From Candidatus Babeliales bacterium (GTDB lineage: Bacteria; Babelota; Babeliae; Babelales; JANWKD01), in the NCBI GenBank assembly GCA_963722255.1, contig CAVRJO010000001.1, forward strand, positions 704,001 to 768,000: a stretch of 64,000 nt of DNA, read 5' to 3'. The position numbers and the translations under genes were made by a program. Below are positions 1-61,038 of the stretch, one piece after another. The notes below the pieces were generated by a model. That model was not told the DNA's origin. It saw only the letters and a list, made by a program, of their open reading frames with translations, and did not search any database. How positions within the stretch are numbered: the stretch's first letter is position 1; each line of letters starts with the position of its first letter.

Positions 1-954
1 TTATAAAAGTATCAAAAGCTGTTAAGCCAATTAATATCCCTGCATCTTTAATTTTAATATCCGAAAAAGATGATGAATCATGTGCCTTAAAACAACGAAC
101 CGCACCTTTAAAATCAGATGCTAAAAAATTTGTAGATCCAAATGGAATAACTGTTTTTAAAGGAAATAATGAATCAGAACCTGATTTAAGCGATGAAATA
201 ACCTTACATTGTGCTTTTGTTGTATTAAATCTTTTATAGGTCTTAAGATTACCATCGTTATCATAAACAATGGTAACGCCACCGGGAGCCCGAGCAACAA
301 TCGCTAAAGCATTATTGGTAATTTTAACGGTTACAGATTTTTTTTTATTAACACAAAGTGTCTGAACCTCACCATCATCCTTACCTATAACTAACTTATT
401 GTTTCTAAAAAATGAAAGCGCAGTAATACAACTTTTTGTAGACTCAAAAAAAATTTTATCTAAAGCTCTGTTATCTATTGTATCCCATAAGATAATGCTC
501 TTGCTGAGCCCAATGGCAAGAACCGAACCCTTTGGCGATAAATCGAAGCAGCTAATAGTTTCATCAACCTCGCCCTTTATAAGTCTATTTTCATCTCCAT
601 TATAATTATAAAAATAAAAACTATTCGGTTTTCTTTGATTACACCAAGCAATAATAGGTCCTGCTGCACAAATTTTGGTTGGTTGATGCGATAATGTAAT
701 ATCATCTTGCCATTGGGAAAATCCCATTCTATCCCTTAAATATGGCACTATCGGCGGATCATTTCGTTTTAAAGCTATTAAATGTATCTACAATTGCTTC
801 AAAAGATTTTTGTAGCGTATCAAAATCAATTTTTACAATAAGTTCATCAACATCTTTTGAAAGATTCTCATATATACTTTTGATAGTGACCTTATTTTCC
901 ATGCTTTGTGCTGTATGAAGAAAATAAAAATAATAAAAATAATAAAATAACCAT
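1..954 (-). pseudogene. Secreted WD40/beta-propeller-like protein, frameshifted, running off the window start
   Basis: Manual translation: MVILLFLLFLF, shift, LHTAQS-MENKVTIK..., shift near 770-790, then an open frame to base 1 with WD-like strands (ISCFDLSPKGSVLAIGLSKSIILWD; ITALSFFRNNKLVIGKDDGEV). Confidence 0.6.
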
Positions 955-1177
955 CAATACATCCTTTACACGGCGTTATTTACACTCCGTTAAAAAATAA
1001 AATTTTTGAAATCTAAGGAGTGTAAAATTAAAATATTTTCGGAAAAGAAAATATTATTTGAAAAAAATAGATGATCAACAATTCCATGATAAATATCATG
1101 AAAGTGATTAGTTATATTTTTGGCTTATGCAACATTTATTTCGTTAATTTTTTTTGCATTATTAGATCTTGCATAAG

Positions 1178-1294
1178 CTAAATCTTAGAGAATCTTTTTT
1201 GATGAGTAGATTGTTTTGATTGATATTTCATTGCATCCAAGGCGATAACAAAATTTGTAACGCTTATTATTATGAACATTGTTGATTTATTCAT
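1178..1294 (-). pseudogene. Short remnant of a signal-peptide protein gene
   Basis: MNKSTMFIIISVTNFVIALDA-MKYQ..., stops after 38 aa. Confidence 0.35.
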
Positions 1295-1900
1295 TATGCG
1301 TCCTTTAAAAAAAGATGAATAAAACTATTTTTTGAATCACAACTATAGCACAATTTTTTTTGCATTCCAATTTTATTATTTTTAAAACAAAAAAAACTTT
1401 ATATCAAAAAGTTTTTAATGAAATTGACCCAAGAATAATTGTTTTTAATGCTTTAATCAACTCAAAATAAAATTATCTATAAAGAAGGAAATTCTTCGGT
1501 ATAAATTTTTATTTATAAAGATATTGGACAGCAAATCATAGCTTACATGCCCAATATCACTCTATCTTTCTTATGATAATTATACATTTTTCATCTTCAA
1601 AAGTTGCACGCCCAGGCCTAGATTTAGAACATATTGGATTCTGGGGAACTAAATTTTTTAATGTCACGTTTTTTAATTTCATTTTTTAACTTTGCAATAT
1701 TCACTGCAATAAAACTAGAGAGAGAATACCTTGCTGTTGTTTCTCTATAGACAACCATTAATAGCTGATGGCGTACTGCTCTCAAGCGCTTCACGTAATG
1801 TTGCAAGTTTATCCAAATGTTCAATGAAAAGATCCGGATCAGTAATTTTGAAAGGCCTTGCAATTTCCCTAAATCCTTTTTTATCATTTTGTATTTCTCT

Positions 1901-2461
1901 CTAAAATTTTTCTTTTTCTTCTTGAGAATAATGCCTCATCTTCTGAAAAATTTTACAACGTTCGATTTGTAAAATCATTCTGTCTTCATCATCAAGATTG
2001 TTCAGAATCATAATTTTATGTTCAAACTTTTCAATTTGCTGTAAAAAATTTCTATCTTGACCAAAAGCTTCTTGAATAAGAAGATCCATTGCGGATGCTA
2101 CCACTGAATTTGCTGGAGATAGATCATTATACCTATTTCTCTGCTTGCGAGATTCATGTAGGGGAGGCATTGCAGTCCTAAAAAAGTTAAAACCTTCTTC
2201 TAAAGACCATTCCTTTTTCACGTTTTCATCATCACAATCCTGAAAAATAAATTTATCATCAACAACTTTTAAGTCACGGTTTAAGTAAGCATCTAAAAAT
2301 GAAACTTGAGTTTTTAATTGACTTAAATATTCTTCTTTTTTAAGGCTTACAAGTTGTTGTTCAAGTTCATTGATACTCATTTCTTGAACTGGTTTATCCT
2401 TCTTTTCCATTGCCTGCAATCCAGCTATCATTGAAGCAAAAGCAAATGAGCATGTTAACAA
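1901..2461 (-). CDS. Secreted hypothetical protein
   Basis: 186 aa ORF; hydrophobic N-terminus ending LQA-MEK; directly downstream of mlaD. Confidence 0.7.
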   Translation of the reverse strand: MLTCSFAFASMIAGLQAMEKKDKPVQEMSINELEQQLVSLKKEEYLSQLKTQVSFLDAYLNRDLKVVDDKFIFQDCDDENVKKEWSLEEGFNFFRTAMPPLHESRKQRNRYNDLSPANSVVASAMDLLIQEAFGQDRNFLQQIEKFEHKIMILNNLDDEDRMILQIERCKIFQKMRHYSQEEKEKF

Positions 2462-2488
2462 TTTTTTTATTTTGATAATTCCTTATTT

Positions 2489-4144: not shown

Positions 4145-4163
4145 AGTAAATTCCTTTTTCAGA

Positions 4164-5228
4164 TCAAAGCCAATATAATTTTTTTACTAAAAACTTCGCA
4201 GGTTCTTGAACTTCAATAAGCGCAAAAACCTTTTGAGTAATTTTTCCAACCGTACCATAAGAAAGTACACTAAACATTGTTGCACGAAATTTTGTAGATA
4301 ACAACATCGTTAAATCAGTAGATACTGCTTTTAATTCTTTTGAATAAAGCTTCTCTAAACTTGTTTCCCACACGGTTTTTAAATCTCCCGAAACAGATTT
4401 TAAATTGCTCAATAACTGTTCAATATTTTTTTGCTCTTGTTCATTAATCTCAGCTCGTTTCAATGCAAATATAGCTCTTATGGAATCGGACAACAACCAA
4501 GCATTCATCTCAGGTTGTTCTGACCATACCGTAAATATATCAGTTAAATACACAGGCCTTTGCTCCTTTTTTTCAATGCTCGGAGGCTCATAAAAAACTC
4601 TGTCTTTAAAGATGTTCTGAAATTCCTCAATAGTCAGCAACTCCGTCACATCATGTACCTTATACTGCCTTTGTTTTAAAAACTTTTCAAATGCTTCAGA
4701 TAAATCTTTATTATTGAGAAATTTTTTGGCTGATGCAAAAAATGCACTAACAGCTTTTTTCATATCACCTTGGGCAGCACCTTCATGTAAAAATTTTTTT
4801 GTAGTAAAGTCAAATATTTTATTAATATCAAGCTTCCCATTTTCACTCATTATGCAAAATTTTACACTACCATCAATACCTTCGATTTCCTCATCCAGCT
4901 TATATTCTTGCCAAAGATTTAAGTGAGAAAGATTTTTTTTCAAAAATAAGAGATTTGGATCTTGTTTCTCTTTTTTTTCATCGGGCTTTTCAGTAGTTTT
5001 TTGTTGATCTTCTTTTTCAAGATTAACAGCAAGTTGATTCATAGCAAGCTGAATTCCGCCAAGAGCAATTTGTTTTGCTTGTTCTCGTTCAATCATAGTT
5101 TTTGCAAAATAAAGATGTGTGCGTCCTTTATTAAAAAGTTGCGTAACCATTATAACCATAATACTTAAAATAATAAGAGTAAGTACGAGTATGTAACCCT
5201 GTGATGCATTATTATGTTGTTGTTTCAT
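4164..5228 (-). CDS. gspK: Type II secretion minor pseudopilin GspK-like
   Basis: QGYILVLTLIILSIMV prepilin-like N-terminus lacking E5; SENGKLDIN motif; operon position. Confidence 0.8.
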   Translation of the reverse strand: MKQQHNNASQGYILVLTLIILSIMVIMVTQLFNKGRTHLYFAKTMIEREQAKQIALGGIQLAMNQLAVNLEKEDQQKTTEKPDEKKEKQDPNLLFLKKNLSHLNLWQEYKLDEEIEGIDGSVKFCIMSENGKLDINKIFDFTTKKFLHEGAAQGDMKKAVSAFFASAKKFLNNKDLSEAFEKFLKQRQYKVHDVTELLTIEEFQNIFKDRVFYEPPSIEKKEQRPVYLTDIFTVWSEQPEMNAWLLSDSIRAIFALKRAEINEQEQKNIEQLLSNLKSVSGDLKTVWETSLEKLYSKELKAVSTDLTMLLSTKFRATMFSVLSYGTVGKITQKVFALIEVQEPAKFLVKKLYWL

Positions 5229-5232
5229 ACAT

Positions 5233-6204
5233 TCATCCTAAACCTGGTACTACTGGTTTTATTTTTTCACCTTCTTTATGCGCCTGTTCTTTTTGATCGG
5301 AACCTTGCGGTGGTTTTTTTTCAGGCGGCTTCACTCCTAGTTTTTTCTGTTTCTTTGCCATTGTTTGTGCAACAAAAGTTGTTATCTGAAAATTAAAAAC
5401 AAATGATTCTTCACGTTGCTTGTTATCCCAAAATTCGCAGGTACATTGTATAAATTCAGGAATTTTTGGTTGCTCTTGCTGCTCTTCTTTTTTTGTCTCC
5501 ACATCCCAATTTTTAACCGTTTTATATTCTGGTTTTGGTTTTTCCTGTTCTTTGTTTTTAGTTTCTTTTGACGCTTCTTGCTTTTCTTCTTTTTTGACAG
5601 GATAGGTATACTCACATTTTATTGATTTAACACCGCTTGCAAGTTCAAAACCTCGTATCGGTTTTGCTGCTTTAGGATCATATGCCTTAAAATCCAGCTC
5701 TTGCGATTCTTGTCGTACTAAACTCAATGATTTGGGATTTTCTTCATCAGGAATTAATCTATACACAACACGCACAATGCGCGATTTTGGTTTAACATTT
5801 ACTGCTTTTTCATAAACTTTTATTGGATTGTTGGTGATAAAGGTAAGCAGCTGCAAAGCATCTTCAGCACCATTTTCAGCATAAAAAATCTTTTCAGTTG
5901 GCTTACGCTTTTTCTGTTCATCTTCTTTTTTTTGTTCAGGCTGTTTTGTGGTTTCTTTGCTTTCAGCAGGTTTTTTTGGTGTTGGAGTCTGTGTCAAATC
6001 AGTTTCATCAGGAATAAAAATGCCGGCAAAATCTTTTTCAAACTGATTCTCTACAAGAGCAGCGCGAAGATCGATTGTTATAAAATTATCTGCAATCGAT
6101 ACCACACGATTAGTAACAAAAAAAGCATTATAAAGCGCAGTACCGATTAATGAAGAAAGAAAAAGGCCAATAGAAAGCTCTATAAGAGTAAAACCTTTTT
6201 TCAT
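5233..6204 (-). CDS. gspJ: Prepilin-type pseudopilin GspJ-like
   Basis: KKGFTLIELSIGL methylation motif; RVVYRL; operon position. Confidence 0.75.
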   Translation of the reverse strand: MKKGFTLIELSIGLFLSSLIGTALYNAFFVTNRVVSIADNFITIDLRAALVENQFEKDFAGIFIPDETDLTQTPTPKKPAESKETTKQPEQKKEDEQKKRKPTEKIFYAENGAEDALQLLTFITNNPIKVYEKAVNVKPKSRIVRVVYRLIPDEENPKSLSLVRQESQELDFKAYDPKAAKPIRGFELASGVKSIKCEYTYPVKKEEKQEASKETKNKEQEKPKPEYKTVKNWDVETKKEEQQEQPKIPEFIQCTCEFWDNKQREESFVFNFQITTFVAQTMAKKQKKLGVKPPEKKPPQGSDQKEQAHKEGEKIKPVVPGLG

Positions 6205-6632
6205 TTTTTTTCATTCTCCTTTTTTTCAGGAGCTTTGTATAAAAATGTAATCATTGTCTCGCTCTTTTTTTTTCGTCCTTCTTGCCATTGTGCTTCAGCT
6301 TTTTCAATAAAACAAGATTCGAATTTTTTAAGGGCAGATTTTTCATTAATTTTTTGCAAGACATACGATAGCTTAAATTCCTTTTCTTGCGCTGCCGGTT
6401 GAGCTTGTTTTTCCTCTTTTTGTTCTGCACGATCTAATGCTGCAACTATTAATCTATTTCTTAATGAGAAAATATGTCTGAGTCGCGCAGAATAATCTAC
6501 CACAGAATTGAATGTAATATTTTGTAATGATAAAATTGCCGTCAAAAGCATGCCGAGCATGACAATTGCGATCATAACTTCCATAAAACTGAAACCGGGC
6601 GACGAACTGTTAAGGTTTTTGAAATGTATCAT
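6201..6632 (-). CDS. gspI: Prepilin-type pseudopilin GspI-like
   Basis: PGFSFMEVMIAIVML motif; operon position. Confidence 0.75.
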   Translation of the reverse strand: MIHFKNLNSSSPGFSFMEVMIAIVMLGMLLTAILSLQNITFNSVVDYSARLRHIFSLRNRLIVAALDRAEQKEEKQAQPAAQEKEFKLSYVLQKINEKSALKKFESCFIEKAEAQWQEGRKKKSETMITFLYKAPEKKENEKK

Positions 6633-7158
6633 ATTCTTTTAGTTGTACGGTGAACGGATTGAGAACTAATCCTAATCTAATTGGTTGTGTTTGGCTAGTA
6701 TCCTCAACATTAATAATGACATTCTGAGAAAGCCCTTCAGGCATTATATAAAACCACATGGATGAAGTTTTGCGCTCAGGCTGATTAAGCTCATCATTAC
6801 CATCAATAAAGAAATTTTTAATCTCTATTTGTTCTGGCCATTCATAAGAGTTTGCACGATATGTTTGGGTAATTGGTTTATACATAACCTCGCCTGCAGA
6901 TGCTCCCGGCTCTTCACTTTCAAGAGAGACAACTCTTTTTTCAACATCAAAAAAAACGCGAATAATTTTTTGTGAAGCAAGAGCATCTTGCCAACCAAGC
7001 GCCATCAAGGTATTAAGCTCCGAAATGAATGCTTTACGTTTATGGCCGGGAACACGCTGTTGCAAATTTGGAATAACAATGGTTGCCACTATGCCAAGAA
7101 GCAAAATGACAACCATAATTTCCAGTAAACTAAATCCTTGTTTAGCTCTTCCAAACAC
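6610..7158 (-). CDS. gspH: Prepilin-type pseudopilin GspH-like
   Basis: QGFSLLEIMVVILLLGIVATIVIP; FYIMPEG. Confidence 0.8.
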   Translation of the reverse strand: MFGRAKQGFSLLEIMVVILLLGIVATIVIPNLQQRVPGHKRKAFISELNTLMALGWQDALASQKIIRVFFDVEKRVVSLESEEPGASAGEVMYKPITQTYRANSYEWPEQIEIKNFFIDGNDELNQPERKTSSMWFYIMPEGLSQNVIINVEDTSQTQPIRLGLVLNPFTVQLKEYDTFQKP

Positions 7159-7594
7159 TAATGTAATCCTCTTCAGTTGCTACATCAGGGCCTTTGTCAC
7201 CAAATGAATATAATTCATATGGATGTTCAGCACCAGGCGTTATCTTATATTGGAACTCATTGCCCCAAGGATCTTCCGGAAGGCCTTTTTCAAGATACGG
7301 CAATGACCATTTTTTTCCAGCAGCGCCAGATGGCTTTTCTACCAAGTCTTTAAGTTCTTTAGGATATGAACCAATTTCAGCATGATAATTATTAACAGCT
7401 TGTGAAATAGCATTCAAGCTTGCTCGAGCAGAATTTTCTTTTCCTTTTACGAGCCATCTGTAGGTAGCGGGACCAACGGTTGCTAATAAAATCCCCATAA
7501 TCAAAATCACTACGGAAATTTCAATGAGACTGAACCCTTGAACAAGATCAGCTCTTTTTTTGCGCATTGAGAGTAACATAAAATATCCTTTCAT
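7142..7594 (-). CDS. gspG: Major pseudopilin GspG
   Basis: GFSLIE motif; YPKELKDLVEKP...W..PYL...DPWGNEFQY...YELYSFG. Confidence 0.92.
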   Translation of the reverse strand: MKGYFMLLSMRKKRADLVQGFSLIEISVVILIMGILLATVGPATYRWLVKGKENSARASLNAISQAVNNYHAEIGSYPKELKDLVEKPSGAAGKKWSLPYLEKGLPEDPWGNEFQYKITPGAEHPYELYSFGDKGPDVATEEDYISVWKS

Positions 7595-7599
7595 TTTAG

Positions 7600-8811
7600 T
7601 TAGCCTAATTTTGTCATTTGCATCATTGGCTGAACAATTGACAATACAACAAATCCAACAACAACAGCCATCACCAACAACATTATTGGTTCAAGCTTTG
7701 AAGCAAGCGCATCAGAAAAATCTGATAAATCTGCTTCATAATTTTTTGCAACGGTTAAAAGCATAAAATCAAGCTGCCCGCTTTCTTCACCGGTTTTGAG
7801 CAAATAGATTGCAATAGGCGGGAAAATACCGGTCTGACGCAAGTATTCAGCAATTTTACCTTGTTTAATAATATTATCTCGAGCCTTACTTAATGCATCT
7901 TTTAGAATACGATTGTCAATAATTTTTACCACAATATCAAGCGATTCAGAAAGATTAACTCCGCTTTCTAAAAGCATACCTAATGTTCTACTGAATTGTA
8001 CTACAGCTCCCATGCGAGTAAAAAAGCTTACAACAGGAATTTTTAATTTTATTTTATCAACCGTGCGTGCACCACTGGGTGTTTTGCTCCAATAATCGAT
8101 ACAAAATAACGGTACAATAATAAAAATAATAATAGCTATATAATAGGTACGAATAAAGTCTGAAAGCGTTATTAGAAATTGCGTTGTTGCTGGCAACTTG
8201 GTTCCTTGTGCTGTAAATGTTTGCGTTAACGTTGGAATTACGAACGTCAAAAGCGCAACAACGATAAGAGCAACGACTCCCAACTGAATCAAAGGATATG
8301 AAAGTGCACCCTTAACCTTTTTTGTTAATTCGGCACGTCGTTCCATATATTCAACCAAACGCTCTAAAATCATCTCAAGTTTACCACTTGCCTCACCAGC
8401 GCGTACAAGCTGAACATAAATCGTATCAAAGACTTTGGGATATTTACTTAATCCATCAGCAAAAGATTTACCTTCCTTAATGCCATCTTTTATAGCAATT
8501 ACAATTGATTTTAATCGACCTTCAAACTGTTCGATTAAAAGTTCTAGAGCTTGCAAAAGAGGAACACCGGATTTAAGTAGAACTGCAAGTTGCTTGGTAA
8601 ATAATATCTTATCTTTTAAGGTTATTCCTTTTTGAAACAGTTTTTTGTACCAAGCCTGAGCTCCCGATTGATCTTTAGCCAACTGAACATTAATCGGATA
8701 CATGCCTTGTTTGGTTATTTGCTGCAATGCTGCTTCTTGAGATTGAGCATCTAATGTTCCACTAACTTTTTTACCATCTTTTGCATATGCTTGGTAAGAA
8801 TATAAAGCCAT
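7600..8811 (-). CDS. gspF: Type II secretion inner-membrane platform protein GspF/PilC
   Basis: FTKQLAVLLKSGVPLLQAL; RAGEASGKL; ALSYP; TGEESGQL; LEP. Confidence 0.95.
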   Translation of the reverse strand: MALYSYQAYAKDGKKVSGTLDAQSQEAALQQITKQGMYPINVQLAKDQSGAQAWYKKLFQKGITLKDKILFTKQLAVLLKSGVPLLQALELLIEQFEGRLKSIVIAIKDGIKEGKSFADGLSKYPKVFDTIYVQLVRAGEASGKLEMILERLVEYMERRAELTKKVKGALSYPLIQLGVVALIVVALLTFVIPTLTQTFTAQGTKLPATTQFLITLSDFIRTYYIAIIIFIIVPLFCIDYWSKTPSGARTVDKIKLKIPVVSFFTRMGAVVQFSRTLGMLLESGVNLSESLDIVVKIIDNRILKDALSKARDNIIKQGKIAEYLRQTGIFPPIAIYLLKTGEESGQLDFMLLTVAKNYEADLSDFSDALASKLEPIMLLVMAVVVGFVVLSIVQPMMQMTKLG

Positions 8812-8937: not shown

Positions 8938-9921
8938 ATGAAAAGTACATCAATTTTATTTTTTATCGCCTTTGTATTAGTTATTTCATCTTCAATCGAT
9001 GCAAAACATTCTGCGCTAGAATACAATGATGATTTTCTAACAACATGTTGCAAACCACTTAACTTTACTCAACCACGTACTGTACATTATTTTTTACAAA
9101 ATGTCTTCAGCAATAAACGATATGCCCAAGAATATTTGCCTTACAATATGGGCACGCATTGTATACAATTTTTAGAAGATGGCAAAAAGTTACAAAAAAG
9201 TGCTGCCTATATGGAAGCATCTCTCAGACTATTTTATAATAAAATGAAAGAATGTCCTTTTGTCTGCCCATTTGGTTTATCAGAGTTTCTTGATAAGGCT
9301 ACACTCTGTATCAAACACGGCACTTCAGCATTTAATCATGAAGATTTTTACAACGATATAGAAAAAAATGCTATGGATATTTTTGTTCCCACTTTTGTTT
9401 CAGACTTTTCATTCTTTAAAAGCAACCCTGAACAATTTTTAAAAAATTTAGCACATTCTGTGACGCTTATGGTAAAAAACACTTTTAATGTTCACGATCA
9501 TGTTGCTCAAGAGCATCTTAAACAGATGTTTGTTCGAACGGTCGAACTTGGGCTTATGAAGCTCATATGGACACCTAATGATCAGATTGGGGCTTGGCAT
9601 TCATTTAAAAAGTTGGCAACACAATGCGTCAATTTATTAGAAATGGATCTTATTTCTCCTGACGAACTTGATGATCTCTTTAAATCATTATTAGAGAGCT
9701 TCTGTAGGTTCCTTGATTTAGCCGGATCGGAACTTTCTTTAACGGTCATTGATACCATTAAAGAAGATGTTCTTTCAAATGAGTTGCTCATATTTGAATT
9801 TGAAGAACAAGAACAGATGCTTGAAACCAAGCGCGAACGTCTTCTTGATGTTTTGATGGAAACTGAAGCTAAAATCGAAGCGCGTATGCGTGGTATTATT
9901 ACGGATATTGTAGTTTGTTAA
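8938..9921 (+). CDS. Exported hypothetical protein
   Basis: 327 aa ORF with AGGAG RBS and signal peptide; divergent from gspF. Confidence 0.8.
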   Translation: MKSTSILFFIAFVLVISSSIDAKHSALEYNDDFLTTCCKPLNFTQPRTVHYFLQNVFSNKRYAQEYLPYNMGTHCIQFLEDGKKLQKSAAYMEASLRLFYNKMKECPFVCPFGLSEFLDKATLCIKHGTSAFNHEDFYNDIEKNAMDIFVPTFVSDFSFFKSNPEQFLKNLAHSVTLMVKNTFNVHDHVAQEHLKQMFVRTVELGLMKLIWTPNDQIGAWHSFKKLATQCVNLLEMDLISPDELDDLFKSLLESFCRFLDLAGSELSLTVIDTIKEDVLSNELLIFEFEEQEQMLETKRERLLDVLMETEAKIEARMRGIITDIVVC

Positions 9922-9952
9922 CACATATATTTATTCAAAAAAGGGAATTGTT

Positions 9953-10459
9953 ATGATAAAAAAGAATAGTATGCTAGCTTACGCATTCTTAATAACCTCT
10001 TTAGCAGCATCGTTACATGGTGAAAATAAAAAAGATAAATACGAAGAATGGTGCCAAAATCTTGATCTTAATGAAGAACAAGCTCAAAAACTCTCATCAT
10101 ATCTCGATGAATTCAAAAGTTTAGCCACCAAAGAAAAACTGCAATCATATCGCAATGCAGTCAAAGAGAATAAAACAGCGGAAGAAAAATTTCTTGAAGA
10201 CACTGAAGCACAAATATTTTGGCTAAAAACACAACAATTGATTGAAGATCGCGTTTTGTGTAAAGCATTAGTTCAGATGCTTTTATTAACAGGACTTGAT
10301 ATCAGCTATCTTATTCATAATAAAGATTTAGAGAAGCTTGGTTCAGAAGAGAATCCAATTAAGGAAATTGACATTGAAGAAACAACTCGTTTTTTTGAAC
10401 AAGTTGAAAGAACAGTTAATGCATGTAAGTCATGTAATAAATTTCATAAGAAAAAATAA
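9953..10459 (+). CDS. Exported hypothetical protein with C-terminal CxxCxxxH-like tail
   Basis: Signal peptide; ends ACKSCNKFHKKK. Confidence 0.7.
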   Translation: MIKKNSMLAYAFLITSLAASLHGENKKDKYEEWCQNLDLNEEQAQKLSSYLDEFKSLATKEKLQSYRNAVKENKTAEEKFLEDTEAQIFWLKTQQLIEDRVLCKALVQMLLLTGLDISYLIHNKDLEKLGSEENPIKEIDIEETTRFFEQVERTVNACKSCNKFHKKK

Positions 10460-10508
10460 AATTTCTTAGGTATTTTGTTTGTTCAAAATACCTAAAACCA
10501 AAATTTTT

Positions 10509-10735
10509 TATTAGCAGTATTTTGCATGCCCAAAATAGTGCAGACAAAAGGGCACAAACAGTTCCTTTTGATCCCTTTCCCATGCGTATATGCACCACAC
10601 ATCATTTCGGCTTTGCAGCCTCATGATTTCGGGTGCACGACGCATTACCGGAATATATTTTATAAGTCTGATTTTTTACTAAGACATGTATGTTTTTCAA
10701 CACAAAAAACAATTATTAATCGCAAAGTTGTCATT
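10509..10735 (-). repeat. About 225-bp structured repeat, copy 1
   Basis: Reverse complement aligns with 30014-30236; contains several hairpins. Confidence 0.85.
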
Positions 10736-10757
10736 AAAGAGCAATATACCAATGAAT

Positions 10758-10810
10758 GTCATTGCGAGAGCCTACTTCGCTTTGCGAAGTATGGTTCGTG
10801 GCAACCCAGT
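10758..10810. repeat. Lone arm of GTCAT palindromic element with internal hairpin
   Basis: gtcattgcgagagcc-tacttcgc-ttt-gcgaagta-tggttcgtggcaacccagt. Confidence 0.8.
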
Positions 10811-10833
10811 AATAAAATTATTCTTTCTTATTT

Positions 10834-11244
10834 TTAGCTCGCGCTCACTAAAACATCAGCCTCAGAATGAGCCTTCTCTTTTCTATAATCTTGCCATGCT
10901 TGCCAAGCTTCATGTCCCAAATAAATACTACAGCACAATGAATAAAACGTTCCAAGAGCAATTGTACCTTTTCCAGGATAATACCCAGCAGCTACACCAC
11001 AAGCAAGTGCACTAACAAATGGAACAACTTCTGCAAGCACAGGATGAGTATCTCTAGATTCTCTCATTGCATCCCCTAAAATATCATATACATGATTCGC
11101 TGTGAGTTGCATAACTATAAACGCCCAAACTCTATCATTCTGAACAAATGACGCAACATCATTGGCTGAAAAACATGAAGATGCAGAAGGTGAAATTAGT
11201 AATAATGCAGATACAACGAAAACAAAACTTTTTACAAAGTTCAT
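10834..11244 (-). CDS. Membrane hypothetical protein
   Basis: GGAGG RBS before MNFVK; signal peptide plus hydrophobic helices. Confidence 0.7.
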   Translation of the reverse strand: MNFVKSFVFVVSALLLISPSASSCFSANDVASFVQNDRVWAFIVMQLTANHVYDILGDAMRESRDTHPVLAEVVPFVSALACGVAAGYYPGKGTIALGTFYSLCCSIYLGHEAWQAWQDYRKEKAHSEADVLVSAS

Positions 11245-11383
11245 AAAACCTCCAAATAAAACTATAGCATAATCTAATACCATTCTTTATTATAGTATCA
11301 TACTAATAAAAAAATAACAAAAGTTGTTAAAATTATTCTATTTGAATTTATTTACAGTAACTAATTAAAAAAGGGATAAAATC

Positions 11384-11806
11384 ATGAAGAAAGTTATACT
11401 ATTCTCACTTGTAGCACTTGCAAATCTCCAAGCACATCATCCTGTAATCAATTATGCACTCATTAATGAATGGTGTACGTCTATCCAATCGCTCAATCAA
11501 GGTTCTTTAAAAATCATGCAAACCTATTTACAAGACTTAGAAACATTTGCAACCTGTTGTGTAGAAAATCCAGAATGCTTTGAAACATCTGAAGGTAAAG
11601 CACTGCAGCAAAAGATCAATGAAGATGTCTCAGCTATCATGCATAATCAAGATCTTATTCCGGTCTTTGAGCATTTGACTATGCTTATAAAAGAAGAAGT
11701 TGGTCAAGAAAAATTTACACTACTTAACCAACGAAAAAAAGAGTATGAACTTCTTGCTCAGGTTGTTAAAGGATGTTTAGAATGCATTGAACGTAAACTT
11801 GCTTAA
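11384..11806 (+). CDS. Exported hypothetical protein
   Basis: Signal peptide; C-terminal CxxC (GCLECIERK). Confidence 0.75.
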   Translation: MKKVILFSLVALANLQAHHPVINYALINEWCTSIQSLNQGSLKIMQTYLQDLETFATCCVENPECFETSEGKALQQKINEDVSAIMHNQDLIPVFEHLTMLIKEEVGQEKFTLLNQRKKEYELLAQVVKGCLECIERKLA

Positions 11807-12249: not shown

Positions 12250-12255
12250 CTACTG

Positions 12256-18338: not shown

Positions 18339-20939
<2,601 letters not shown>

Positions 20940-50659: not shown

Positions 50660-51211
50660 TTACATTATAACGGCATTAATAGCATGCACAACACCATTAG
50701 TACCGATTATATCCATACCTATAGCAGAAGCTGAATCATTTATTTTGATTTTACCATTTTTAACACCAATACCAAGCTTTCTGCCCGCAAAGGGTAGTAC
50801 ATATTCCATATGCATTAACTCAGTTGCTAATACACGGCCCGGGATTATATGTAAGTTTAAAACATTTCTAAGCCTCTGTACGCCCTTATCAGTTGCTATA
50901 TCATTAAAAATAGCATCATAGGTTTCAGCACCTAACATTTCATCGCTTTTTAAAAAACGAAATGCTTCATCCGTTGGAGCAAAAATAGTAATTTCTTTAG
51001 CGGCTTCTATAGGCGCAGCATATCCTGCCTTTTTTATATTTTCATAAAAGATTGGAAAAGCTCTCTTTATGATTTCAATAACATTAAGATCTGTTTTGTA
51101 TTGTAGATTCCCTTGATGTGCCGGATTACGTGACGTACCTTGGCTACCTATGCCATTAAATGGGATCAAAAATAGGCTATAGAACATGACTAATTTAATA
51201 ATCTTTATCAT
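50660..51211 (-). CDS. Fasciclin (FAS1) domain protein
   Basis: TIFAPTDEAF; LHIIPG; NGVVHAINAVI. Confidence 0.92.
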   Translation of the reverse strand: MIKIIKLVMFYSLFLIPFNGIGSQGTSRNPAHQGNLQYKTDLNVIEIIKRAFPIFYENIKKAGYAAPIEAAKEITIFAPTDEAFRFLKSDEMLGAETYDAIFNDIATDKGVQRLRNVLNLHIIPGRVLATELMHMEYVLPFAGRKLGIGVKNGKIKINDSASAIGMDIIGTNGVVHAINAVIM

Positions 51212-51306: not shown

Positions 51307-51768
51307 ATGAACAATTTTTTTGATTTTTTAAAAATTACACTTTTTGTACTCATTCTTTTATCAATTGCATTGAAGAAAACTATTGCAATGGAAGATGATG
51401 CACTGCCAACAGAAGGCGATGCACTCTATCAAGAAGCTATTAACAAGTTAATACAAGAACTTAAAGGAGAGACGCTTCCTTGCACAGATAATTCTGAATA
51501 TAGTATCGATACAAATCTATGCACAAATCAAAACCAGCATGAAGCACAAAAATGTGCACCGACAAAATTCAGTAAACTACAATGCGATATTTGCTATAAA
51601 AATTACAAAACCGAACAGTTATTAGAGCTCCATCGCAACGTAAGACACCTTAAGTTATTTTATGTGTGTGCAAACTGTAAAGAATCATTTAACCATATAG
51701 CATTATTGGAAGCTCATCAGGCTCAAAACATATGTGACCAAAAAACTATTCTTGCTGAAATGAATTAA
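51307..51768 (+). CDS. Secreted C2H2 zinc-finger protein
   Basis: CDIC...HRNVRH and CANC...HQAQNIC; signal TIA-MED. Confidence 0.8.
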   Translation: MNNFFDFLKITLFVLILLSIALKKTIAMEDDALPTEGDALYQEAINKLIQELKGETLPCTDNSEYSIDTNLCTNQNQHEAQKCAPTKFSKLQCDICYKNYKTEQLLELHRNVRHLKLFYVCANCKESFNHIALLEAHQAQNICDQKTILAEMN

Positions 51769-54733
51769 GGTTTGTATAAGTTCTTATTTTAATTTTAATA
51801 TTTTTTTCAACTAACCATGATGCCATAAAAAAATATTTTTGAAATATCAACACTAAAATTCAAAAAATCCCTGTAATGCGCTAAAAAAAGTGATGATTCC
51901 CGTTTATTAATAAAAAAAATCTCACTCAAGTAATTTTTCATCGTCATACTGTTCTCTTAAAAACTATGAAAGAATTTAGGAAAAAAGACTTTCTAGTGCA
52001 GAGGTATGATTAAGCATTTTTTTACATAAACATTCATTTACTCTCTAAGAAGGTTATTTCATGAATAAAAGCATTCATATATTTTTTTTGGCATTCATTG
52101 TTACAATACACGGCTCAATAACATTAAGCATGGAAAGATGGAATGGCGAAACATATAATGGAAAGCCGCTCATCACGGTTAACTGGGGAGAAAAAAAAGA
52201 TCAATCCAATAAACCGCATCATGACTCTCATGATCATGCTATGAAACAAGCGCATGATAGCGCTATAAAAGAACACTTACATAAAGGAATAGGACCAAAA
52301 TCTTCATCTTCAAAAGAATACGATTATTCTACTGATGATAACGATGATGGTAACGATTACGACGACGATGATGATTATGACGATTATTATGAAGAACATT
52401 TAGCATATGAGGCAAGAAGACAAAGGGAAATTGAAGCAACGGAAAAATATTATGAAGAAAATAATATACCATACCTAGAAAATTCAGATGGAACAAAGAC
52501 TTATTTTCCCCCACTCCTCAACACCTATGGTAATGATGGTTCTATGCATACTACAGTTCAATCTAATGAATCACAAAAACCCGTCCAACAAAAAATTGAA
52601 AGCACTGCTTTTTCACCATCTCTTACCAATATTTATAGTACCCATTTACAAGGTAATCAAACTGCAACAACCAATACCTCTTCATCAGATTCAATAGATA
52701 ATTCATCATCGCAACAAATAGAGATTGATGAAAGCGAATTTGAAAGCTACAGTTCGCCTGCGGCAACAAACATACCAAAATCAATTTCAAACAGTCCAAA
52801 AGTATCTAACCCTACAAGACAAATAAACAGAAAATCATTGCCCGCACGATCAAGAAAAAATAATGATACTCCAGAATCATCTTTTGGACTTGATAATAAT
52901 CCTTGGCCAGATCATCTTCTTGAGGAGCAAAGAGCTCAAAGAAAAGCCGCTCGAGATGAAAAAAAACGCTCACGTAGAATGATAGACTTACTTGTAAACG
53001 ATCAATCAATTCCTTCTCATGTAAGGGATGCGTTACATGATATTGTTAAGGCAGATGGTTATTGGGGATGGATTACACCTGACGAAATGCAAAGACGAAT
53101 TCAGCCTATTCGCCAAGATTATAAAAATATTTTGCATCATTTGCGAATACAAGAAAACCTAACTGCTGAACAAATAGAGCAACGAAGAGCATTAGAAGAT
53201 GAACTATTTACCCAAGAAGAGCGAACATTAGTCTATGAAGGTGCATTGAAACAGATTGATAGAAAACGGCAACGTGATATTGATGAAAATATAAATATTT
53301 TGCATATTTTTACTAGTAAATTGCAACAATTAAACAATAAATATGATGCCAGAAAATCAGAATATAAAAGAAATGCATTAGATGCTCTTAGTGAAGGTTA
53401 CAAAAAAGAATATCAAGATAAACAAAGGCAAAAAGAAGAGGAACTCAAAAAATTTCAAGACGAGGCTCTTCAACGACAAAATCAATTGGAGCATCAAAGG
53501 CATGTTCAAAAAATAAACAAAGCTCGCAAAGAAATTGACAGAATATTTAGAGAACAAAAACCAAAACCTTTAGAGGAGCATCCTTCAAATTCATCTGATG
53601 CATTTTTAACCTTTGCAGACATAGAGATCATTATTGAACCTGAACAACGTGATCCTACAATAAATTTAGATGGAATTGATCTTTCTTCAGTTGATTTTGT
53701 TGTCACAACACAAAGCAACGAATTCCTAAAACAGATCGGCATTGATCCTAATGAGTTTAATAATTTTAAAGGAAATGCTAAGCAAAATAAACTTCATAAA
53801 AAACTTTCTAAAGCTATCAAAAATGCTTCTGATCTTGGTATCGAAGTTGCTCCTCATGTTCGCGAAATGCAGCAAGAACTTTTCAAAGCAGCCTATGATT
53901 TAAACACACAAAGTTATACAGAAATTGCACAGGATTTATTAGAATTATGCAACCCATGTACATTAGGATTAGCACTTGGCAAAGAAGTTGCTGATACAGT
54001 TTTATATCCTCTAGAATATATCAAAAGGCGCCTCAATGAAATGCCGGGCATTGCAAAATCACATTTGCCACTCATTGAAAGATATGAAAGGATGCAGGCT
54101 GCAGCAAAAGACATTGCCCAAACAACACAAGAATTAAATGCACAAAATTCCTTTGCATCACAAGCGAAAAATATTGAAAAAAATAATAAACAATTATCAA
54201 TACAAGAACGCCAGCAAATGCTTGCTCAAAACACCATTGATTTCTTTGTAGATTTTTTATTGATAGCGGGAGCAGGCAAAACTTTTGAAGTATCCGGACT
54301 CAATAAAGCGCACAACAATTATAGAATGCGGAATTATTATAGAAAAAAATATCCTTATTATGATATAACCATTGAAGCATTTGACAATCCTAGACCTTCT
54401 CCTGTAAGCCCTACTACTCTTATTGAAGGTGCTGCTGATGGCCAATTACCTGCTGTTGTAGAAAATGCTGTTAATCAAGTGATTAAAGCAATCGAACAAA
54501 AATCAATGCCAATAAGAAGCTCTGAGCCTATTGTTGTTCATCCTGAAGCTCCCACACATACACTGCCAGAAGCTGCTGTTACTGAAAAAGGTTTAGCAGA
54601 AGTATTAGCGGATGTTGGAGAGAAAGAAGCAAGCAATAATATTATTCATTACATGGAGCCTGAAAGTAGAACATTAAAAGTAGTCGATAATGAAGTTTTG
54701 CGTAATACTCGTTCAGGAAGTGCATTAAAACCT

Positions 54734-56183
54734 TGTCAACGCAACGTGAAAAGTTCCGGTATTTAGCAAAGTAAAAAGTTCCTAACATTAAAGCGCCTCC
54801 ACGGCCGGCGCGACCGGCTTCAACCTACTCTCACTAGGGGGCAACCCGCCTGCCCAACGTTGGCTATTTTTTGAAGGCTTTCTTGGTATACAGTCAGATA
54901 TTTTTTTCTCCTGAATTTGGGGGGTTGGTCGTTGGTAGATTTCGCTAAAAGAAAGTTCTGTTTTTCGAATCCACAGTTTTATGGTTCCATTTAAATGTAC
55001 TTTAACAACAATGGTATTTTTTGGAAAAATGATTGTTTTTTGCTGATCGCTTAATTGAAAAATCTGTTTTTGGTAGGTAATAGTAAAATCATTCGTAAGA
55101 ATACGAGTCTCTTGTGTGCTAAATATATCGTTTAAATCAAATGATTGAGCACTAGCATGGGCATCGCCTTCTTGGGCAGCAGGAACTTGAAATGCAGCAT
55201 TATGCTTTGCAATATAATTGCTTGTTCGCAGATAATTATTTGCTTGATCTATTGATGATATCCCAGCAAGTCTCATTTCCTTAATAAGGCGATCTTGAAG
55301 GGTTTGATTGCAACGTTCAACGCGGCCCTTTGCCTGAGGACTATTGGCATGTATAACATCAATTCCCAAATCTTTACAAGCGCGCTCCCATTGGGTCTTT
55401 TTAATATTTTCTTGATTACTCAAATTAACATGGAAAACAGAACCGTGGTCAGTATAAAAAGTTTGAGGAATCCCATATTTTTCAACGTAATTTTTAGTTG
55501 CGGTCATTAAAGCATGCATCGATTCAGAAGGGGCAAACTCAAGCCAAAGGATTTGGCCAGTAGCATCGTCAATAAAAACAAGTAAGGTACATACCCCAGC
55601 ACGCCCTTCAAACCAGTCATGTGGAGAGCCATCAAGCTGAATCATTATGCCAAACATACGCCTTCTTTCTCGTCGCTTGCGATGCTTGCTGCGCTGTTTT
55701 TTAGGTTGCCATATTCCTGCCTTAATCATGACCTTTCTAACAGCTTCTCGACTTATCTTTATTCCATGCAACTCTTTAAGTTTTTCAGCCGCAAAGGTTG
55801 GCCCAAAGCCTTGCCAATCGCTTTCTAACAATGAGATTAACAATCGTTCTTCTCCTTGATCCCATCTATTTGGGCTTTCTTTTCCCCTATTGCCATGTAC
55901 AAGGCCAAAGTCGTCAGATTCACAATATCTTCCATATTTTTCTCTGACCCACCGCTCTGTAAATCTCAGACGGGCTGCAGCCTCTGCCTGTGTCATTTTT
56001 CCTTCTTTAACCTGAACAAACACTTTTGCCTGTTCTCGTTCTTTGCGATTCATGGTAATATATTCCATATAAGTTCCGTTGCATTTTTAGAGTTTTTCTT
56101 TTTGTTTACAAGATTAAGTTTACCCTAAAAACCGGAACTTTTTACTTTGCGCTATAATAGGAACTTATCACTTTGCGCTAACA
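54734..56183 (-). mobile_element. IS1202-family (ISNCY) insertion sequence, 1450 bp, 17-bp target duplication
   Basis: TGT...ACA ends with repeated aaagttcc boxes; gaagtgcattaaaacct at 54717-54733 and 56184-56200. Confidence 0.93.
54788..56068 (-). CDS. DDE transposase, IS1202/ISNCY
   Basis: IQLDGSPHDWFEGR; FIDDATG; YTDHGSVF; SPQAKGRVERCNQTLQDRL. Confidence 0.95.
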   Translation of the reverse strand: MEYITMNRKEREQAKVFVQVKEGKMTQAEAAARLRFTERWVREKYGRYCESDDFGLVHGNRGKESPNRWDQGEERLLISLLESDWQGFGPTFAAEKLKELHGIKISREAVRKVMIKAGIWQPKKQRSKHRKRRERRRMFGIMIQLDGSPHDWFEGRAGVCTLLVFIDDATGQILWLEFAPSESMHALMTATKNYVEKYGIPQTFYTDHGSVFHVNLSNQENIKKTQWERACKDLGIDVIHANSPQAKGRVERCNQTLQDRLIKEMRLAGISSIDQANNYLRTSNYIAKHNAAFQVPAAQEGDAHASAQSFDLNDIFSTQETRILTNDFTITYQKQIFQLSDQQKTIIFPKNTIVVKVHLNGTIKLWIRKTELSFSEIYQRPTPQIQEKKISDCIPRKPSKNSQRWAGGLPPSESRLKPVAPAVEAL

Positions 56184-56972: not shown

Positions 56973-57022
56973 AATATAAAGAAACCATCTACAATGAGCA
57001 AATTAAAAAAGTGGTTACCACA

Positions 57023-57641
57023 ATAAATTTCACCCGCAGCAAGCAGCGGGGTATTGAATTTTTTTAAGGATTTCTATCTACATGAAGAACATCTGACCCA
57101 GATCTCTTGGCGTACGAGTAGGGTCTTTTTTGTGCAACATCATGTAATCCCTTCCCTGGTTTTTTACGTATTCTGCCACTCGTTTTTCGCTTCCATGCTT
57201 ACTTACCGTGTTTACGAAATATCCATCAGACCAAAATTCTCCACCCCATAGCTGCCTCTTTACTTCGGGAACTCGTTTGAAAATTTCCCGCGCCGTTATA
57301 CTTTTTATTTTTCTAATGATATTCGTAGGACTATACGTCGGTACGGACTGCACAAGAAAATGAACGTGATCCCCATCTGTTCCTATTTCTAGAAACTCTA
57401 TCTGATAACGTTTTTCTATCTCAAGACACACCAACCTCAATACTTTGTCTACTTCCTCTGTAAAAACCGCTCGCCTATATTTTGCTGGACAAACTATATG
57501 ATACATCAGAACCGATACATTGTGACTTTTGTGTATAAACCTACTTAATTTACTCATTCTCCCAATTTATCAGGACTTTTTATTTATTCCATTTTTTTAT
57601 CTGACTACGCGGCAAGCCGCGGGGAATTGCACCCGTAGAGA
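57023..57641 (-). mobile_element. IS200/IS605-family IS, copy 2
   Basis: Near-identical to copy 1 (two substitutions and one T-run indel seen). Confidence 0.92.
57078..57557 (-). CDS. tnpA: IS200 Y1 transposase
   Basis: Protein identical to 14234-14713. Confidence 0.97.
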   Translation of the reverse strand: MSKLSRFIHKSHNVSVLMYHIVCPAKYRRAVFTEEVDKVLRLVCLEIEKRYQIEFLEIGTDGDHVHFLVQSVPTYSPTNIIRKIKSITAREIFKRVPEVKRQLWGGEFWSDGYFVNTVSKHGSEKRVAEYVKNQGRDYMMLHKKDPTRTPRDLGQMFFM

Positions 57642-59384: not shown

Positions 59385-59398
59385 AAGCATAATACCAA

Positions 59399-60199
59399 CT
59401 ATTCAAAATAAGTTGCAAAGAGATCTGCATGTTTTTTTACAAACTCTATGCGCTTTTCTATGATATCCCAATCTAATGCTTGCCAAAAAACATCTAAATA
59501 AGGGACTCTTTTGATACCAAAATCGATCATATACGCATGCTCATACACATCCAATACAACTAGGGGAATTACTAACATAGGGACCATTTGATTATGTGTA
59601 TCAAGAACAAAATTATACACTCTGCCATCATCAAGAGCATACCCGGTAATTGCCCAACCTCGTGCCGATTGTGCTGCTGCAAAAAGGTCAGCTTTATATG
59701 CTTCAAGCGAACCAAAGTTTTCTTTTATAAGTTGCGCAGTATTTTCACCAATAGTTGTTGATTTGGGAGTCAAATTCTGAAAATAAAGTCTATGCAAAAT
59801 ATCGCCATTCATTGCAAATGTTTCTGCTAATTTTAACCCACGATAGGGAGAATTAGTTACATTGTTTGCTTTTGATCGATCTGCACTTGCTAACTGCTGA
59901 GCAATTTCATTCCGTTTTGTCACATAGCCTCGATAGAGTTGCTCATGTTCTTCAATCTGCTTAGTGCTTAGTCCCTTAAGTTTGCCGCTCAGATCAAATG
60001 AAAGGGGTTTATGCTCAAAAAATGGCAATGCATCTGAGCTATTTGGAACACTGTCTTGCGAAACTACTTTATGCGTATTAGCTTCGATTTTTACCACAGA
60101 TACCGGTTCTCTTTTTTGTATAAAGAAATGCTGATAAATTCTAAAAAACCCATAGATAGCTATAAGTATAAAAAGCGCACTATATATATTTTTGTTCAT
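59399..60199 (-). CDS. Fe/Mn superoxide dismutase with N-terminal membrane anchor
   Basis: EEH..LY.GYV; LHRLYFQNL; RGWA; LDVYEHAYMIDFG. Confidence 0.9.
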   Translation of the reverse strand: MNKNIYSALFILIAIYGFFRIYQHFFIQKREPVSVVKIEANTHKVVSQDSVPNSSDALPFFEHKPLSFDLSGKLKGLSTKQIEEHEQLYRGYVTKRNEIAQQLASADRSKANNVTNSPYRGLKLAETFAMNGDILHRLYFQNLTPKSTTIGENTAQLIKENFGSLEAYKADLFAAAQSARGWAITGYALDDGRVYNFVLDTHNQMVPMLVIPLVVLDVYEHAYMIDFGIKRVPYLDVFWQALDWDIIEKRIEFVKKHADLFATYFE

Positions 60200-60480
60200 T
60201 GAAAAGTTCCTTTTTTTATGAATAGTATTAACCAAAAATGAGTAGATCAATTCTTAAGAGAGCACCAATTAAAAAAGAAAGTGCAATAATTATACCGGTA
60301 ATAACAACCAGTTTTTTATTCATCATTGATTAATCCTTTAGGCATGAAAACTTACTAAACCGTACCATACATCATAACTCTTGAGCTAGAGTTTGTAATC
60401 TCGAATTTTTGTAAATAGTTATTTCTCTGCTATAATTGTTGCAGATATTAAATTATTTATTGAAAACACAGATGAGCCTT

Positions 60481-61038
60481 GTGAAGAAATATATCATTGC
60501 CCTATTATTTATAACTATTTATATACCTGCATGTTTTTCAATGGAATCATTGAAAGCATCATTAAAAATTGCTGCCTTGCCTGTCCTTGCTTCAATGACA
60601 CCACACATAGTCGGAACATTTTTGCAAAATTCAGCTACACAATCAACAGCTTCTCTATCTTCAATTTTATTTCACTCACTCAAAATGAACATAATCCCAG
60701 CTTTTGTGTCGGGGCTTCTCGTTGCAGGAGCATCTCGCATTGGAACTTGGCCACAACTCAACTTTACTGATATATCTAACCCTTTAAAAAAAATGTTAGG
60801 CACTACAATATTCATTTCTGCATTAATTGGAATTGCTCAATATAATCAAGAATACAATGAAAAAGAGTTTCAAAAAGCACTGAGCATAGAACATAAACTA
60901 TATCATTTATCTGAAAAGCAAAAATGCGCACTCTTAGGAACTTTAGCATCACTTTGTTTACAATCACAAATTATTGTCCCCTTAGGTAGCGCGGCACTAT
61001 CGCTTTATATACTTGGCACACGATATTCTATGTGCTAA
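60481..61038 (+). CDS. Membrane protein family member 4
   Basis: Signal CFS-MES; ASRIGTWPQLNF motif shared with the 25-27 kb array. Confidence 0.75.
   Translation: MKKYIIALLFITIYIPACFSMESLKASLKIAALPVLASMTPHIVGTFLQNSATQSTASLSSILFHSLKMNIIPAFVSGLLVAGASRIGTWPQLNFTDISNPLKKMLGTTIFISALIGIAQYNQEYNEKEFQKALSIEHKLYHLSEKQKCALLGTLASLCLQSQIIVPLGSAALSLYILGTRYSMC

Follow-up and report, generated by a model that had tools for sequence, protein, structure and literature searches.

Marks formed by single residues that directly follow the cleavage site of a signal peptide and track the destination of the protein belong to a kind that is already known. The mature proteins released at ordinary signal peptidase I sites usually begin (+1) with Ala or some other small or polar residue, which says nothing about protein class. 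In lipoproteins, both the +2 rule and the Bacteroidetes lipoprotein export signal let the residues after the cleavage site decide the compartment, with acidic residues involved, and these residues follow a lipidated Cys that results from Lgt and signal peptidase II. In Plasmodium, the mature N-terminus confers export specificity, the hydrophobic ER or Sec-type signal being removed and a short new N-terminus with an acidic or amide residue marking the host-bound proteins (PMC10653839). The motif involved, PEXEL (RxLxE/Q/D), lies downstream of the hydrophobic signal, contains no Met and is cut after its Leu by the eukaryotic plasmepsin V, with the resulting xE/Q/D N-terminus deciding export and PTEX serving as the translocon. 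The analysis presented here concerns a mark in a Candidatus Babeliales bacterium, namely a Met at the predicted +1 position, mostly followed by Glu, Asp, Gln or Asn. It was followed up from a 64,000-nucleotide stretch of the genome (the window, G000:C1:704001-768000) to the whole assembly, which comprises 1.62 Mb in two contigs with 34% GC.

The Dependentiae, a phylum with a wide distribution, live as obligate parasites of protists. The assembly was placed there through GspF, the relatives of which all come from Babeliales/Dependentiae metagenome-assembled genomes, the nearest being 76% identical. The window holds a type II secretion system (T2SS)/pseudopilin cluster, ankyrin genes, IS200-type transposases and numerous orphan open reading frames (ORFs). 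In described Dependentiae genomes, signal peptides have been reported for 44% of coding sequences and for most ankyrin proteins, and the T2SS is the sole secretion system detected (PMC6561590, PMC4378268). Full-text literature searches returned no report of a Met mark after the cleavage site. The main text of the three Dependentiae genome papers (PMC6561590, PMC4378268, PMC4776705) reports signal peptides and the T2SS and leaves such a mark unmentioned: neither "methionine" nor "cleavage site" occurs in that of PMC6561590, "methionine" does not occur in that of PMC4378268, nor "signal peptide" in that of PMC4776705.

The Met mark and its predicted cleavage site

An earlier note on this DNA had listed 21 ORFs in which a signal-like N-terminus ends in a small residue followed by Met. 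All 21 strings were found in window ORFs (Table 2), with Glu, Asp, Gln or Asn at +2 in 19, as claimed, and Lys in the remaining two; the ORFs with AQS-ME and LDA-MK both look like fragments (2/21). The exported proteins that it had named as lacking the Met do lack it, including the one at 35777 (VHA-DI, the hyphen marking predicted cleavage) and those given as contrasts in Table 2. For the genome-wide survey, ORFs were called as the longest frames of at least 70 amino acids (aa) with overlaps resolved greedily, 1649 of 2494 being kept. Cleavage sites are predicted throughout, by our own heuristic combining the (-3,-1) rule with a hydrophobic core, where an uncharged core of about 8-20 residues near the N-terminus is one selection criterion. 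Defined strictly, as [AGSCT]-Met-[EDQN] without charged residues from the core to the Met, the motif was detected in 158 of the 1649 ORFs (158-161 depending on the scan), against about 10 expected from the internal tripeptide frequency (373 per 366,852 positions). When the central residue of [AGSCT]-X-[EDQN] after an uncharged hydrophobic stretch was left free, Met occurred 161 times, Leu 43, Ile 36, Ser 30 and Ala 26. A hydrophobic N-terminal stretch was present in 777 ORFs, of which 141 (18%) have Met directly before the first charged residue, the background Met frequency being 1.9%. A heuristic blind to +1 gave 651 signal-like ORFs, 191 of them with a rule-conforming site and Met at +1, and at the last candidate site Met was the commonest +1 residue (170 vs 54 for Leu). 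A looser rule allowing a charged c-region returned 299 of 818 ORFs, a count that includes chance matches and also recovers true cases lost by the strict rule. The Met mark is thereby confirmed to be far beyond chance and much wider than the window, with about 160-210 ORFs (10-13% of all, roughly one gene in ten) combining a signal peptide with Met. Hereafter, "tagged" refers to the 213 ORFs with a small residue followed by Met after a signal-like N-terminus, whatever the +2 residue.

Cleavage is predicted to fall directly before the Met, as the earlier note had supposed. In a profile of 259 ORFs aligned on the Met prior to any -1 filter, the -1 residue is small in 210 (A 71, S 45, G 42, C 27, T 25), -3 is occupied by L/S/I/A/T/V and -2 by F/Y/L/N/Q, and the +2 counts are E 105, N 33, Q 21 and K 18. 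Lys or Arg precedes the hydrophobic core in 93% of the tagged ORFs, the median signal peptide length is 22, and Ala, with its GC-rich codons in a 34% GC genome, is found at -1 in 74 of the 213; Leu, Ile, Phe, Tyr and Trp are rare at +2 (11/213). With this basic n-region, hydrophobic core, small residues at -3 and -1 and median length, the predicted context is that of a classical Sec/signal peptidase I site. It departs from the usual one through the Met at +1, found in roughly one quarter to one third of signal-like N-termini and confined to a single functional class.

Other signal types were also looked for in the tagged ORFs. The lipobox [LVI][ASTVI][GAS]C with Cys at +1 is not found in them, +1 being Met, which sets them apart from lipoprotein signals. 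Cys at -1 is nonetheless present in 27 of the 213 (e.g. NLYC-ME, SVFC-ME) outside any lipobox context, which is more often than is usual at signal peptidase I sites. A Tat-like RRx## motif was seen in only 1 of the 213. Type IV prepilin signals (G-F/M-T-L-I-E) were detected in four ORFs genome-wide, of which three belong to the window's T2SS cluster, and in no tagged ORF; in the latter the hydrophobic stretch precedes the site, unlike in prepilins. Compared with PEXEL, the profile has no Arg at -3 or elsewhere for an RxLxE/Q/D motif (the c-region of the strict set being uncharged by definition), and the bacterial site is, by prediction, an ordinary signal peptidase I site. No shared C-terminal signal emerged, the composition of the last 15 residues being no different. 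A nucleotide-level motif or a mobile signal-peptide cassette was also considered and rejected, given that +2 codon choice equals genome usage and that the signal peptides are diverse; the bases before the inner ATG merely reflect small-residue codons.

As the residue is by definition always encoded by ATG, the inner ATG might begin a second cytoplasmic isoform or be the true start of a mis-extended ORF. A Shine-Dalgarno-like motif 4-18 nt upstream was found at 117 of 213 outer starts (55%) and at 8% of 5506 internal Met codons, but at only 2 of 213 inner ATGs (0.9%), and no -10-like pattern was detected upstream of the inner ATGs, where A at -11 reaches only 22%. The upstream peptide has every signal-peptide feature, small -1 and -3 residues included, and same-order genomes of similar GC, which act as a negative control for the longest-ORF method, yield 3-4% through the same pipeline (Table 1). 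The motif depletion, the absence of a -10-like pattern and these control genomes together rule out the inner ATG as a true or second start for practical purposes, leaving internal initiation a most improbable explanation. As this Met is an internal codon, it would stand unformylated at the N-terminus of the mature protein. The Glu codons at +2 (GAA 79, GAG 22) match genome usage (22598 and 5941), which indicates that selection acts on the protein.

Carriers of the mark and its distribution in Babeliales

Pfam families were assigned among the testable ORFs of C1:1-400000 and of the window, of which 51 are tagged and 120 are untagged and signal-like. The tagged set includes ankyrin (3), WD40/beta-propeller (4), DnaJ (2) and GNAT (2) proteins, a papain-like DUF1796 protein and 36 ORFs with no match, together with two that are probably false positives, one a thioredoxin-reductase fusion and the other a permease. 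The GNAT proteins were considered as possible secreted N-terminal acetyltransferases, a candidate role that was rejected, only generic GNAT similarity being found in PDB (E 1e-4 to 5e-3). The untagged set is made up of membrane transporters and envelope or secreted enzymes (Amidase_3, TolB-like PD40, SBP_bac_3, peptidases M15/S9/M48), with phosphodiesterase, HAD and fasciclin proteins also present and sites such as SQA-RG, ADA-HD, IQA-TI and VFA-QN. Five ORFs counted as untagged (three ankyrin, one Sel1, one zinc-finger) show a small residue before Met once a charged c-region is allowed. Genome-wide, 33 ankyrin ORFs were found, 23 tagged, six signal-like and untagged and four without a signal, so that 23 of 29 signal-bearing ones are tagged; one of the six reads FS-MNN by eye. 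Among WD40 ORFs, 5 of 9 are tagged.

The possibility raised in the earlier note that envelope housekeeping proteins carry the Met just as often was not borne out: none of 22 envelope or enzyme proteins, chosen by Pfam name, has it, compared with 24 of 29 ankyrin ORFs (Fisher p = 9e-10, a value that overstates the case since paralogs are non-independent). Paralog families tend to behave alike, with 0/8 beta-helix, 4/4 ankyrin and 3/3 members of a 739-aa family tagged, and 152 of 172 tagged genes have no further membrane-like segment. Judged by its predicted N-termini, the genome has two kinds of Sec substrate, Met-marked presumed effectors and Met-less envelope proteins and hydrolases. A one-residue mark that splits Sec substrates in this manner would allow the host-directed secretome of several Babeliales families to be predicted from sequence alone.

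The same pipeline was applied to samples of 87-300 kb from eleven other Babeliales genomes, families f5, f7, f10, f12 and f13 being left out, and the frequency of [small]-M-[EDQN] was taken over the ORFs that have a hydrophobic N-terminus (Table 1). Seven genomes from four families are tag-rich (12-23%), and G019, G007, G040 and G041 are tag-poor (3-4%). G048 is Met-positive and is missed by the E/D/Q/N statistic: all six ankyrin-like ORFs in its sample (G048:C1:100001-187835) have a small residue followed by Met, four of them as Met-Val. Ankyrin-like ORFs of G040 and G041 begin with A, T, S or Q instead of Met, the Met being present in 0/8 signal-bearing ones of G040 and in 3/11 of G041, where an Ala start prevails. 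The +2 residue also varies by lineage, being E in the source genome, D in G070 and D/E in G005. A quick single-gene GspF tree did not settle whether the tag-rich lineages form one clade; f3 joined tag-poor families in it (84% SH-aLRT).

Table 1. Frequency of the [small]-M-[EDQN] motif among ORFs with a hydrophobic N-terminus in Babeliales genomes
Genome	Family	Motif/ORFs	Share
Source genome	f1	26/173	15%
G061 (same genus)	f1	32/163	20%
G063	f1	28/171	16%
G064	f1	6/48	12%
G001	f2	26/138	19%
G070	f19	28/124	23%
G005	f3	13/93	14%
G019	f8	3/99	3%
G007	f4	2/75	3%
G040	f6	4/102	4%
G041	f11	3/83	4%
G048	f9	1/36	3%

In G061, G063, G064 and G001, the window's T2SS and housekeeping genes lie in synteny, and most tagged ORFs are without a homolog there. 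Where homologs were found, the Met can be kept at low identity: a relative of the ankyrin ORFs 12885/27856 in G063 (35% identity) retains LPIFA-ME(MS), and the homolog of ORF 16311 in G061 (30% identity) reads SLQA-MEGT. Two WD40 paralogs differ at the site (SYT-LE vs SYT-MD). Relative samples of 200 kb held only 15 relative ORFs with a tagged best match. The aligned partner has a small residue and Met within three residues in 76 of 173 pairs from tag-rich genomes and in 0 of 56 from tag-poor ones, counts that are blurred by ankyrin misalignment and of which the second took G048 as tag-poor, wrongly so for its ankyrin ORFs. A search with the N-terminal 120 residues of ankyrin ORF 27856-29808 returned generic ankyrin proteins, uninformative on the N-terminus.

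These comparisons bear on whether the Met could be a relic, that is, an old initiator left without function when genes gained a signal peptide by 5' extension or fusion. Such a history would suit the carriers, which are mostly orphan or eukaryote-like genes that turn over rapidly, with few having homologs even in the syntenic region of a same-genus genome and with the 901-aa ORF at 52061..54766 having no relative among the genome contigs searched. It would also suit the mostly all-or-none state of the tag within paralog families and the occurrence of tagged genes in islands (35 adjacent pairs vs 17.8 +/- 3.8 in 2000 shuffles, maximum 33). The residues around the Met argue otherwise. At 188 reliable cytoplasmic starts, the second residue is K in 24%, A in 12%, N in 12% and E in 7%, whereas the residue after the tag Met is E in 47%, N in 14%, Q in 8% and K in 7%. 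The c-region before the Met is fully optimised, as the frequent Ala at -1 illustrates, and a neutral ATG should have decayed meanwhile. The Met is also kept in homologs of 30-35% identity. In the syntenic family of ORF 8938, moreover, the Met is present in G061 (SLNT-MQ) and G001 (TLTA-MD) and absent from the source genome, G063 and G064, which indicates that it was gained or lost within established signal peptides. A relic start is accordingly unlikely. Gain or loss in orthologs that keep their signal peptide fits a simple selectable point change, with no dedicated bacterial machinery. The 8938 protein (327 aa), with Met in some genomes only, has weak homologs even in tag-poor families. It is one of three small exported proteins of no known family encoded at 8938-11806 beside the T2SS operon, syntenic in relatives.

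A further explanation would place the cause in processing, with the signal peptidase I of the clade, its Sec machinery or a dedicated paralog cutting best before Met. SipW of Bacillus subtilis, which serves TasA, offers an analogy. The source genome has two signal peptidase I genes (G000:C2:137977-138690 and C2:701973-702674), each with an ortholog in G061 according to the tree, and dedicated signal peptidases that have a P' specificity of their own have been described (PMC10269814). Housekeeping envelope proteins of the same cell, however, have normal Met-less sites, which makes a general signal peptidase requirement unlikely. Nor does copy number track the tag, with G001 being tag-rich with one gene and G007 and G041 tag-poor with two, and the signal peptidase tree shows lineage-specific duplications without any paralog clade that follows the tag; a dedicated paralog was rejected on these grounds. 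A processing preference is thus quite unlikely, and dedicated signal peptidases, relic starts and internal initiation are all disfavoured.

Host-like N-termini and post-Sec sorting as possible roles of the mark

In a 2024 review of N-degron pathways, unmodified N-terminal R/K/H/L/F/Y/W/I, N/Q/D/E and G/A/S/T/C have been described as degrons, while a Val N-terminus is long-lived and Met is kept if residue 2 is larger than Val; Met before a non-hydrophobic residue does not count as an Arg/N-degron (PMC11441550). Small N-termini that lack acetylation act as degrons in plants (PMC8831508). Signal-peptide-bearing Dependentiae ankyrin proteins are expected in the host cytoplasm (PMC4378268, PMC6561590). 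Our leading reading, which we hold tentatively, is that the Met gives exported effectors a host-like, degron-proof N-terminus. It would give proteins bound for the host cytosol their N-terminal identity. A signal-peptidase product would never be acetylated co-translationally, so that Met with a non-hydrophobic residue would be the obvious safe choice: such an N-terminus would resemble that of an ordinary nascent host protein and fit none of the degron classes, and host Met-aminopeptidase would leave the Met in place when residue 2 is larger than Val. The Met may in this way cap exported effectors and preserve their stability inside the host. This host-side reading predicts Met a priori. The acidic or amide residue at +2 also suits export, as Sec export tolerates an acidic early mature region.

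The earlier note had likened the mark to substrates of the host N-terminal acetyltransferase NatB and had proposed escape from N-degron decay. The likeness lies in the Met-D/E/N/Q dipeptide, which is predicted to be exposed in 158 of the 213 tagged ORFs (74%). NatB, however, is described as ribosome-associated (PMC13039445), and here the Met would be exposed only after export; loss of NatB stabilises its substrates (PMC13039445). The ankyrin-like ORFs of G048 use Met-Val in 4 of 6 cases, which is not of the NatB class, and 14 of the 213 tagged ORFs of the source genome have Met-Lys. The NatB-specific part of the proposal is thereby weakened, and the part on N-degron escape stays viable as the leading reading. 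A wider claim, possible but doubtful, is that host N-degron pathways have shaped the cleavage sites of a whole effector arsenal, Met plus a non-hydrophobic residue forming a cap that gives some 200 effectors an N-terminus read by no known N-recognin. If this is true, the host-directed proteins of Dependentiae would be recognisable from sequence alone, and the case would be the first of anti-N-degron design on the scale of a proteome.

Several observations weigh against a host-side benefit. Cleavage, exit from the cell and arrival in the host cytosol are all inferred. The parasitic lineages G040 and G041 lack the Met and the G019 and G007 samples are tag-poor, a distribution that a universal host-side benefit does not predict. 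Val, the other long-lived residue, is not enriched at +1 (V 22 vs M 161), and some enzymes that would depend on cofactors of the cytosol (NDK, a uridine kinase-like protein and an ADP-ribosylglycohydrolase) have signal-like N-termini without the Met. In 240 homolog pairs, Met identity is 38% against about 30% at nearby positions, a weak signal in a comparison blurred by repeat misalignment and the poor alignment of signal peptides. The hosts here are protists, and the recognins described for G/A/S/T/C are human (PMC11441550).

The class specificity of the mark fits equally well with a sorting step after Sec, in which Met-(E/D/N/Q) would be read in the periplasm by an outer-membrane export step, through the T2SS, one of the options in the earlier note, or another route. 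About 200 effectors would thereby be parted from the residents of periplasm and envelope, in the manner of the lipoprotein +2 and surface-export signals or of the PEXEL N-terminus. With some 200 folds that are unrelated, the signal would have to be generic and linear. In Plasmodium a mature N-terminus does confer export specificity (PMC10653839), and the lineage restriction together with a lineage-specific +2 (E in the source genome, D in G070, V in G048) fits a co-evolving bacterial receptor. On the other hand, GspF is present in 21/21 relatives, tag-poor ones included, no machinery specific to tag-rich genomes was found, and the signal peptidase duplications define no clade common to these genomes. 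We know of no linear signal for T2SS substrates, and a sorting signal gives no reason for Met as the residue. Post-Sec sorting is thus the main alternative, an uncertain one. It accounts for the lineage restriction and for a +2 residue that varies by lineage better than the host-side reading does, but leaves the choice of Met without a reason. The mark bears on how effectors are told from envelope proteins and delivered to the host, and it sets a linear post-Sec sorting signal in a diderm against cleavage sites that have adapted to the N-terminal quality control of eukaryotes. Either outcome, sorting signal or host adaptation, would be new for bacteria.

Features of the window

The ORFs of the window that carry the mark are listed in Table 2, along with Met-less exported proteins and the T2SS genes.

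Table 2. Tagged ORFs of the window, with contrasting and neighbouring features (SP, predicted signal peptide)
Feature	Position	Strand	Predicted N-terminus	Met codon	Remark
ORF, 186 aa	1901..2461	-	SP 17 aa, GLQA-MEKKD	2408-2410	No Pfam match
Ankyrin-repeat ORF, 442 aa	12885..14213	+	SP 22 aa, LPIIA-MEMSF	12951-12953	
ORF, 294 aa	16311..17195	-	SP 18 aa, GSVDA-MQFKL	17139-17141	
ORF, 142 aa	17777..18205	-	SP 21 aa, CMNSA-MDFAS	18140-18142	
ORF, 145 aa	21704..22141	+	SP 18 aa, NSIFG-MQQPE	21758-21760	
ORF, 397 aa	23785..24978	-	SP 21 aa, SLFFA-MEEID	24913-24915	No Pfam match
ORF, 187 aa	25153..25716	+	SP 29 aa, QNCSS-MEILK	25240-25242	
ORF, 217 aa	25653..26306	+	HNNFS-MNSTF at residue 53	25809-25811	SP probably starts at inner Met (MNSKKLF...)
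ORF, 110 aa	26340..26672	+	SP 26 aa, QPCSA-METLK	26418-26420	
ORF, 221 aa	26988..27653	+	SP 24 aa, SDIFS-METKQ	27060-27062	
Ankyrin-repeat ORF, 650 aa	27856..29808	+	SP 22 aa, LPLFA-MELSV	27922-27924	
ORF, 274 aa	38808..39632	+	SP 22 aa, KNLYC-MEEQK	38874-38876	
ORF, 792 aa	39778..42156	+	SP 31 aa, SFASC-MNDNA	39871-39873	
ORF, 811 aa	42509..44944	+	SP 22 aa, NPSFA-MKRAN	42575-42577	+2 Lys
ORF, 231 aa	49085..49780	-	SP 22 aa, SSLYA-MQSFR	49712-49714	
GNAT acetyltransferase ORF, 232 aa	49809..50507	-	SP 21 aa, FSLYT-MQTMK	50442-50444	
C2H2 zinc-finger ORF, 153 aa	51307..51768	+	SP 27 aa, KKTIA-MEDDA	51388-51390	
ORF, 901 aa	52061..54766	+	SP 23 aa, SITLS-MERWN	52130-52132	
ORF, 200 aa	60436..61038	+	SP 35 aa, PACFS-MESLK	60541-60543	SP counted from first TTG
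Fragment ORF, 64 aa	759..953	-	HTAQS-MENKV	900-902	No ATG/GTG/TTG start
Short ORF, 38 aa	1178..1294	-	IALDA-MKYQS	1229-1231	
Three Met-less exported ORFs	8938..11806	+	SIDA-KH (8938), SLHG-EN (9953), NLQA-HH (11384)		Contrast; adjoin T2SS genes
Fasciclin-domain exported protein	50660..51211	-	GIGS-QG		Contrast; Met-less
T2SS/pseudopilin genes	4164..8811	-	Prepilin-type G-F(T/S)LIE, 5233-7594		Context; GspF 7600-8811

Some further features of the window were observed. The alanyl-tRNA synthetase locus (18339-20939), the sole one in the assembly, is split over three frames into at least four ORFs, the ortholog in G001 being a single 861-aa ORF. As the gene is essential and single-copy, the split suggests uncorrected indel errors of the assembly and not a pseudogene. 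The stretch 22150-23692 holds three ORFs here, two in the same-genus G061 and one 535-aa ORF in G001, and represents either another frameshifted gene or real decay. Identical 159-aa translations are encoded at 14234-14713 and 57078-57557, both IS200-like Y1 transposases with equal Pfam scores, and both copies sit within regions rich in tagged genes.

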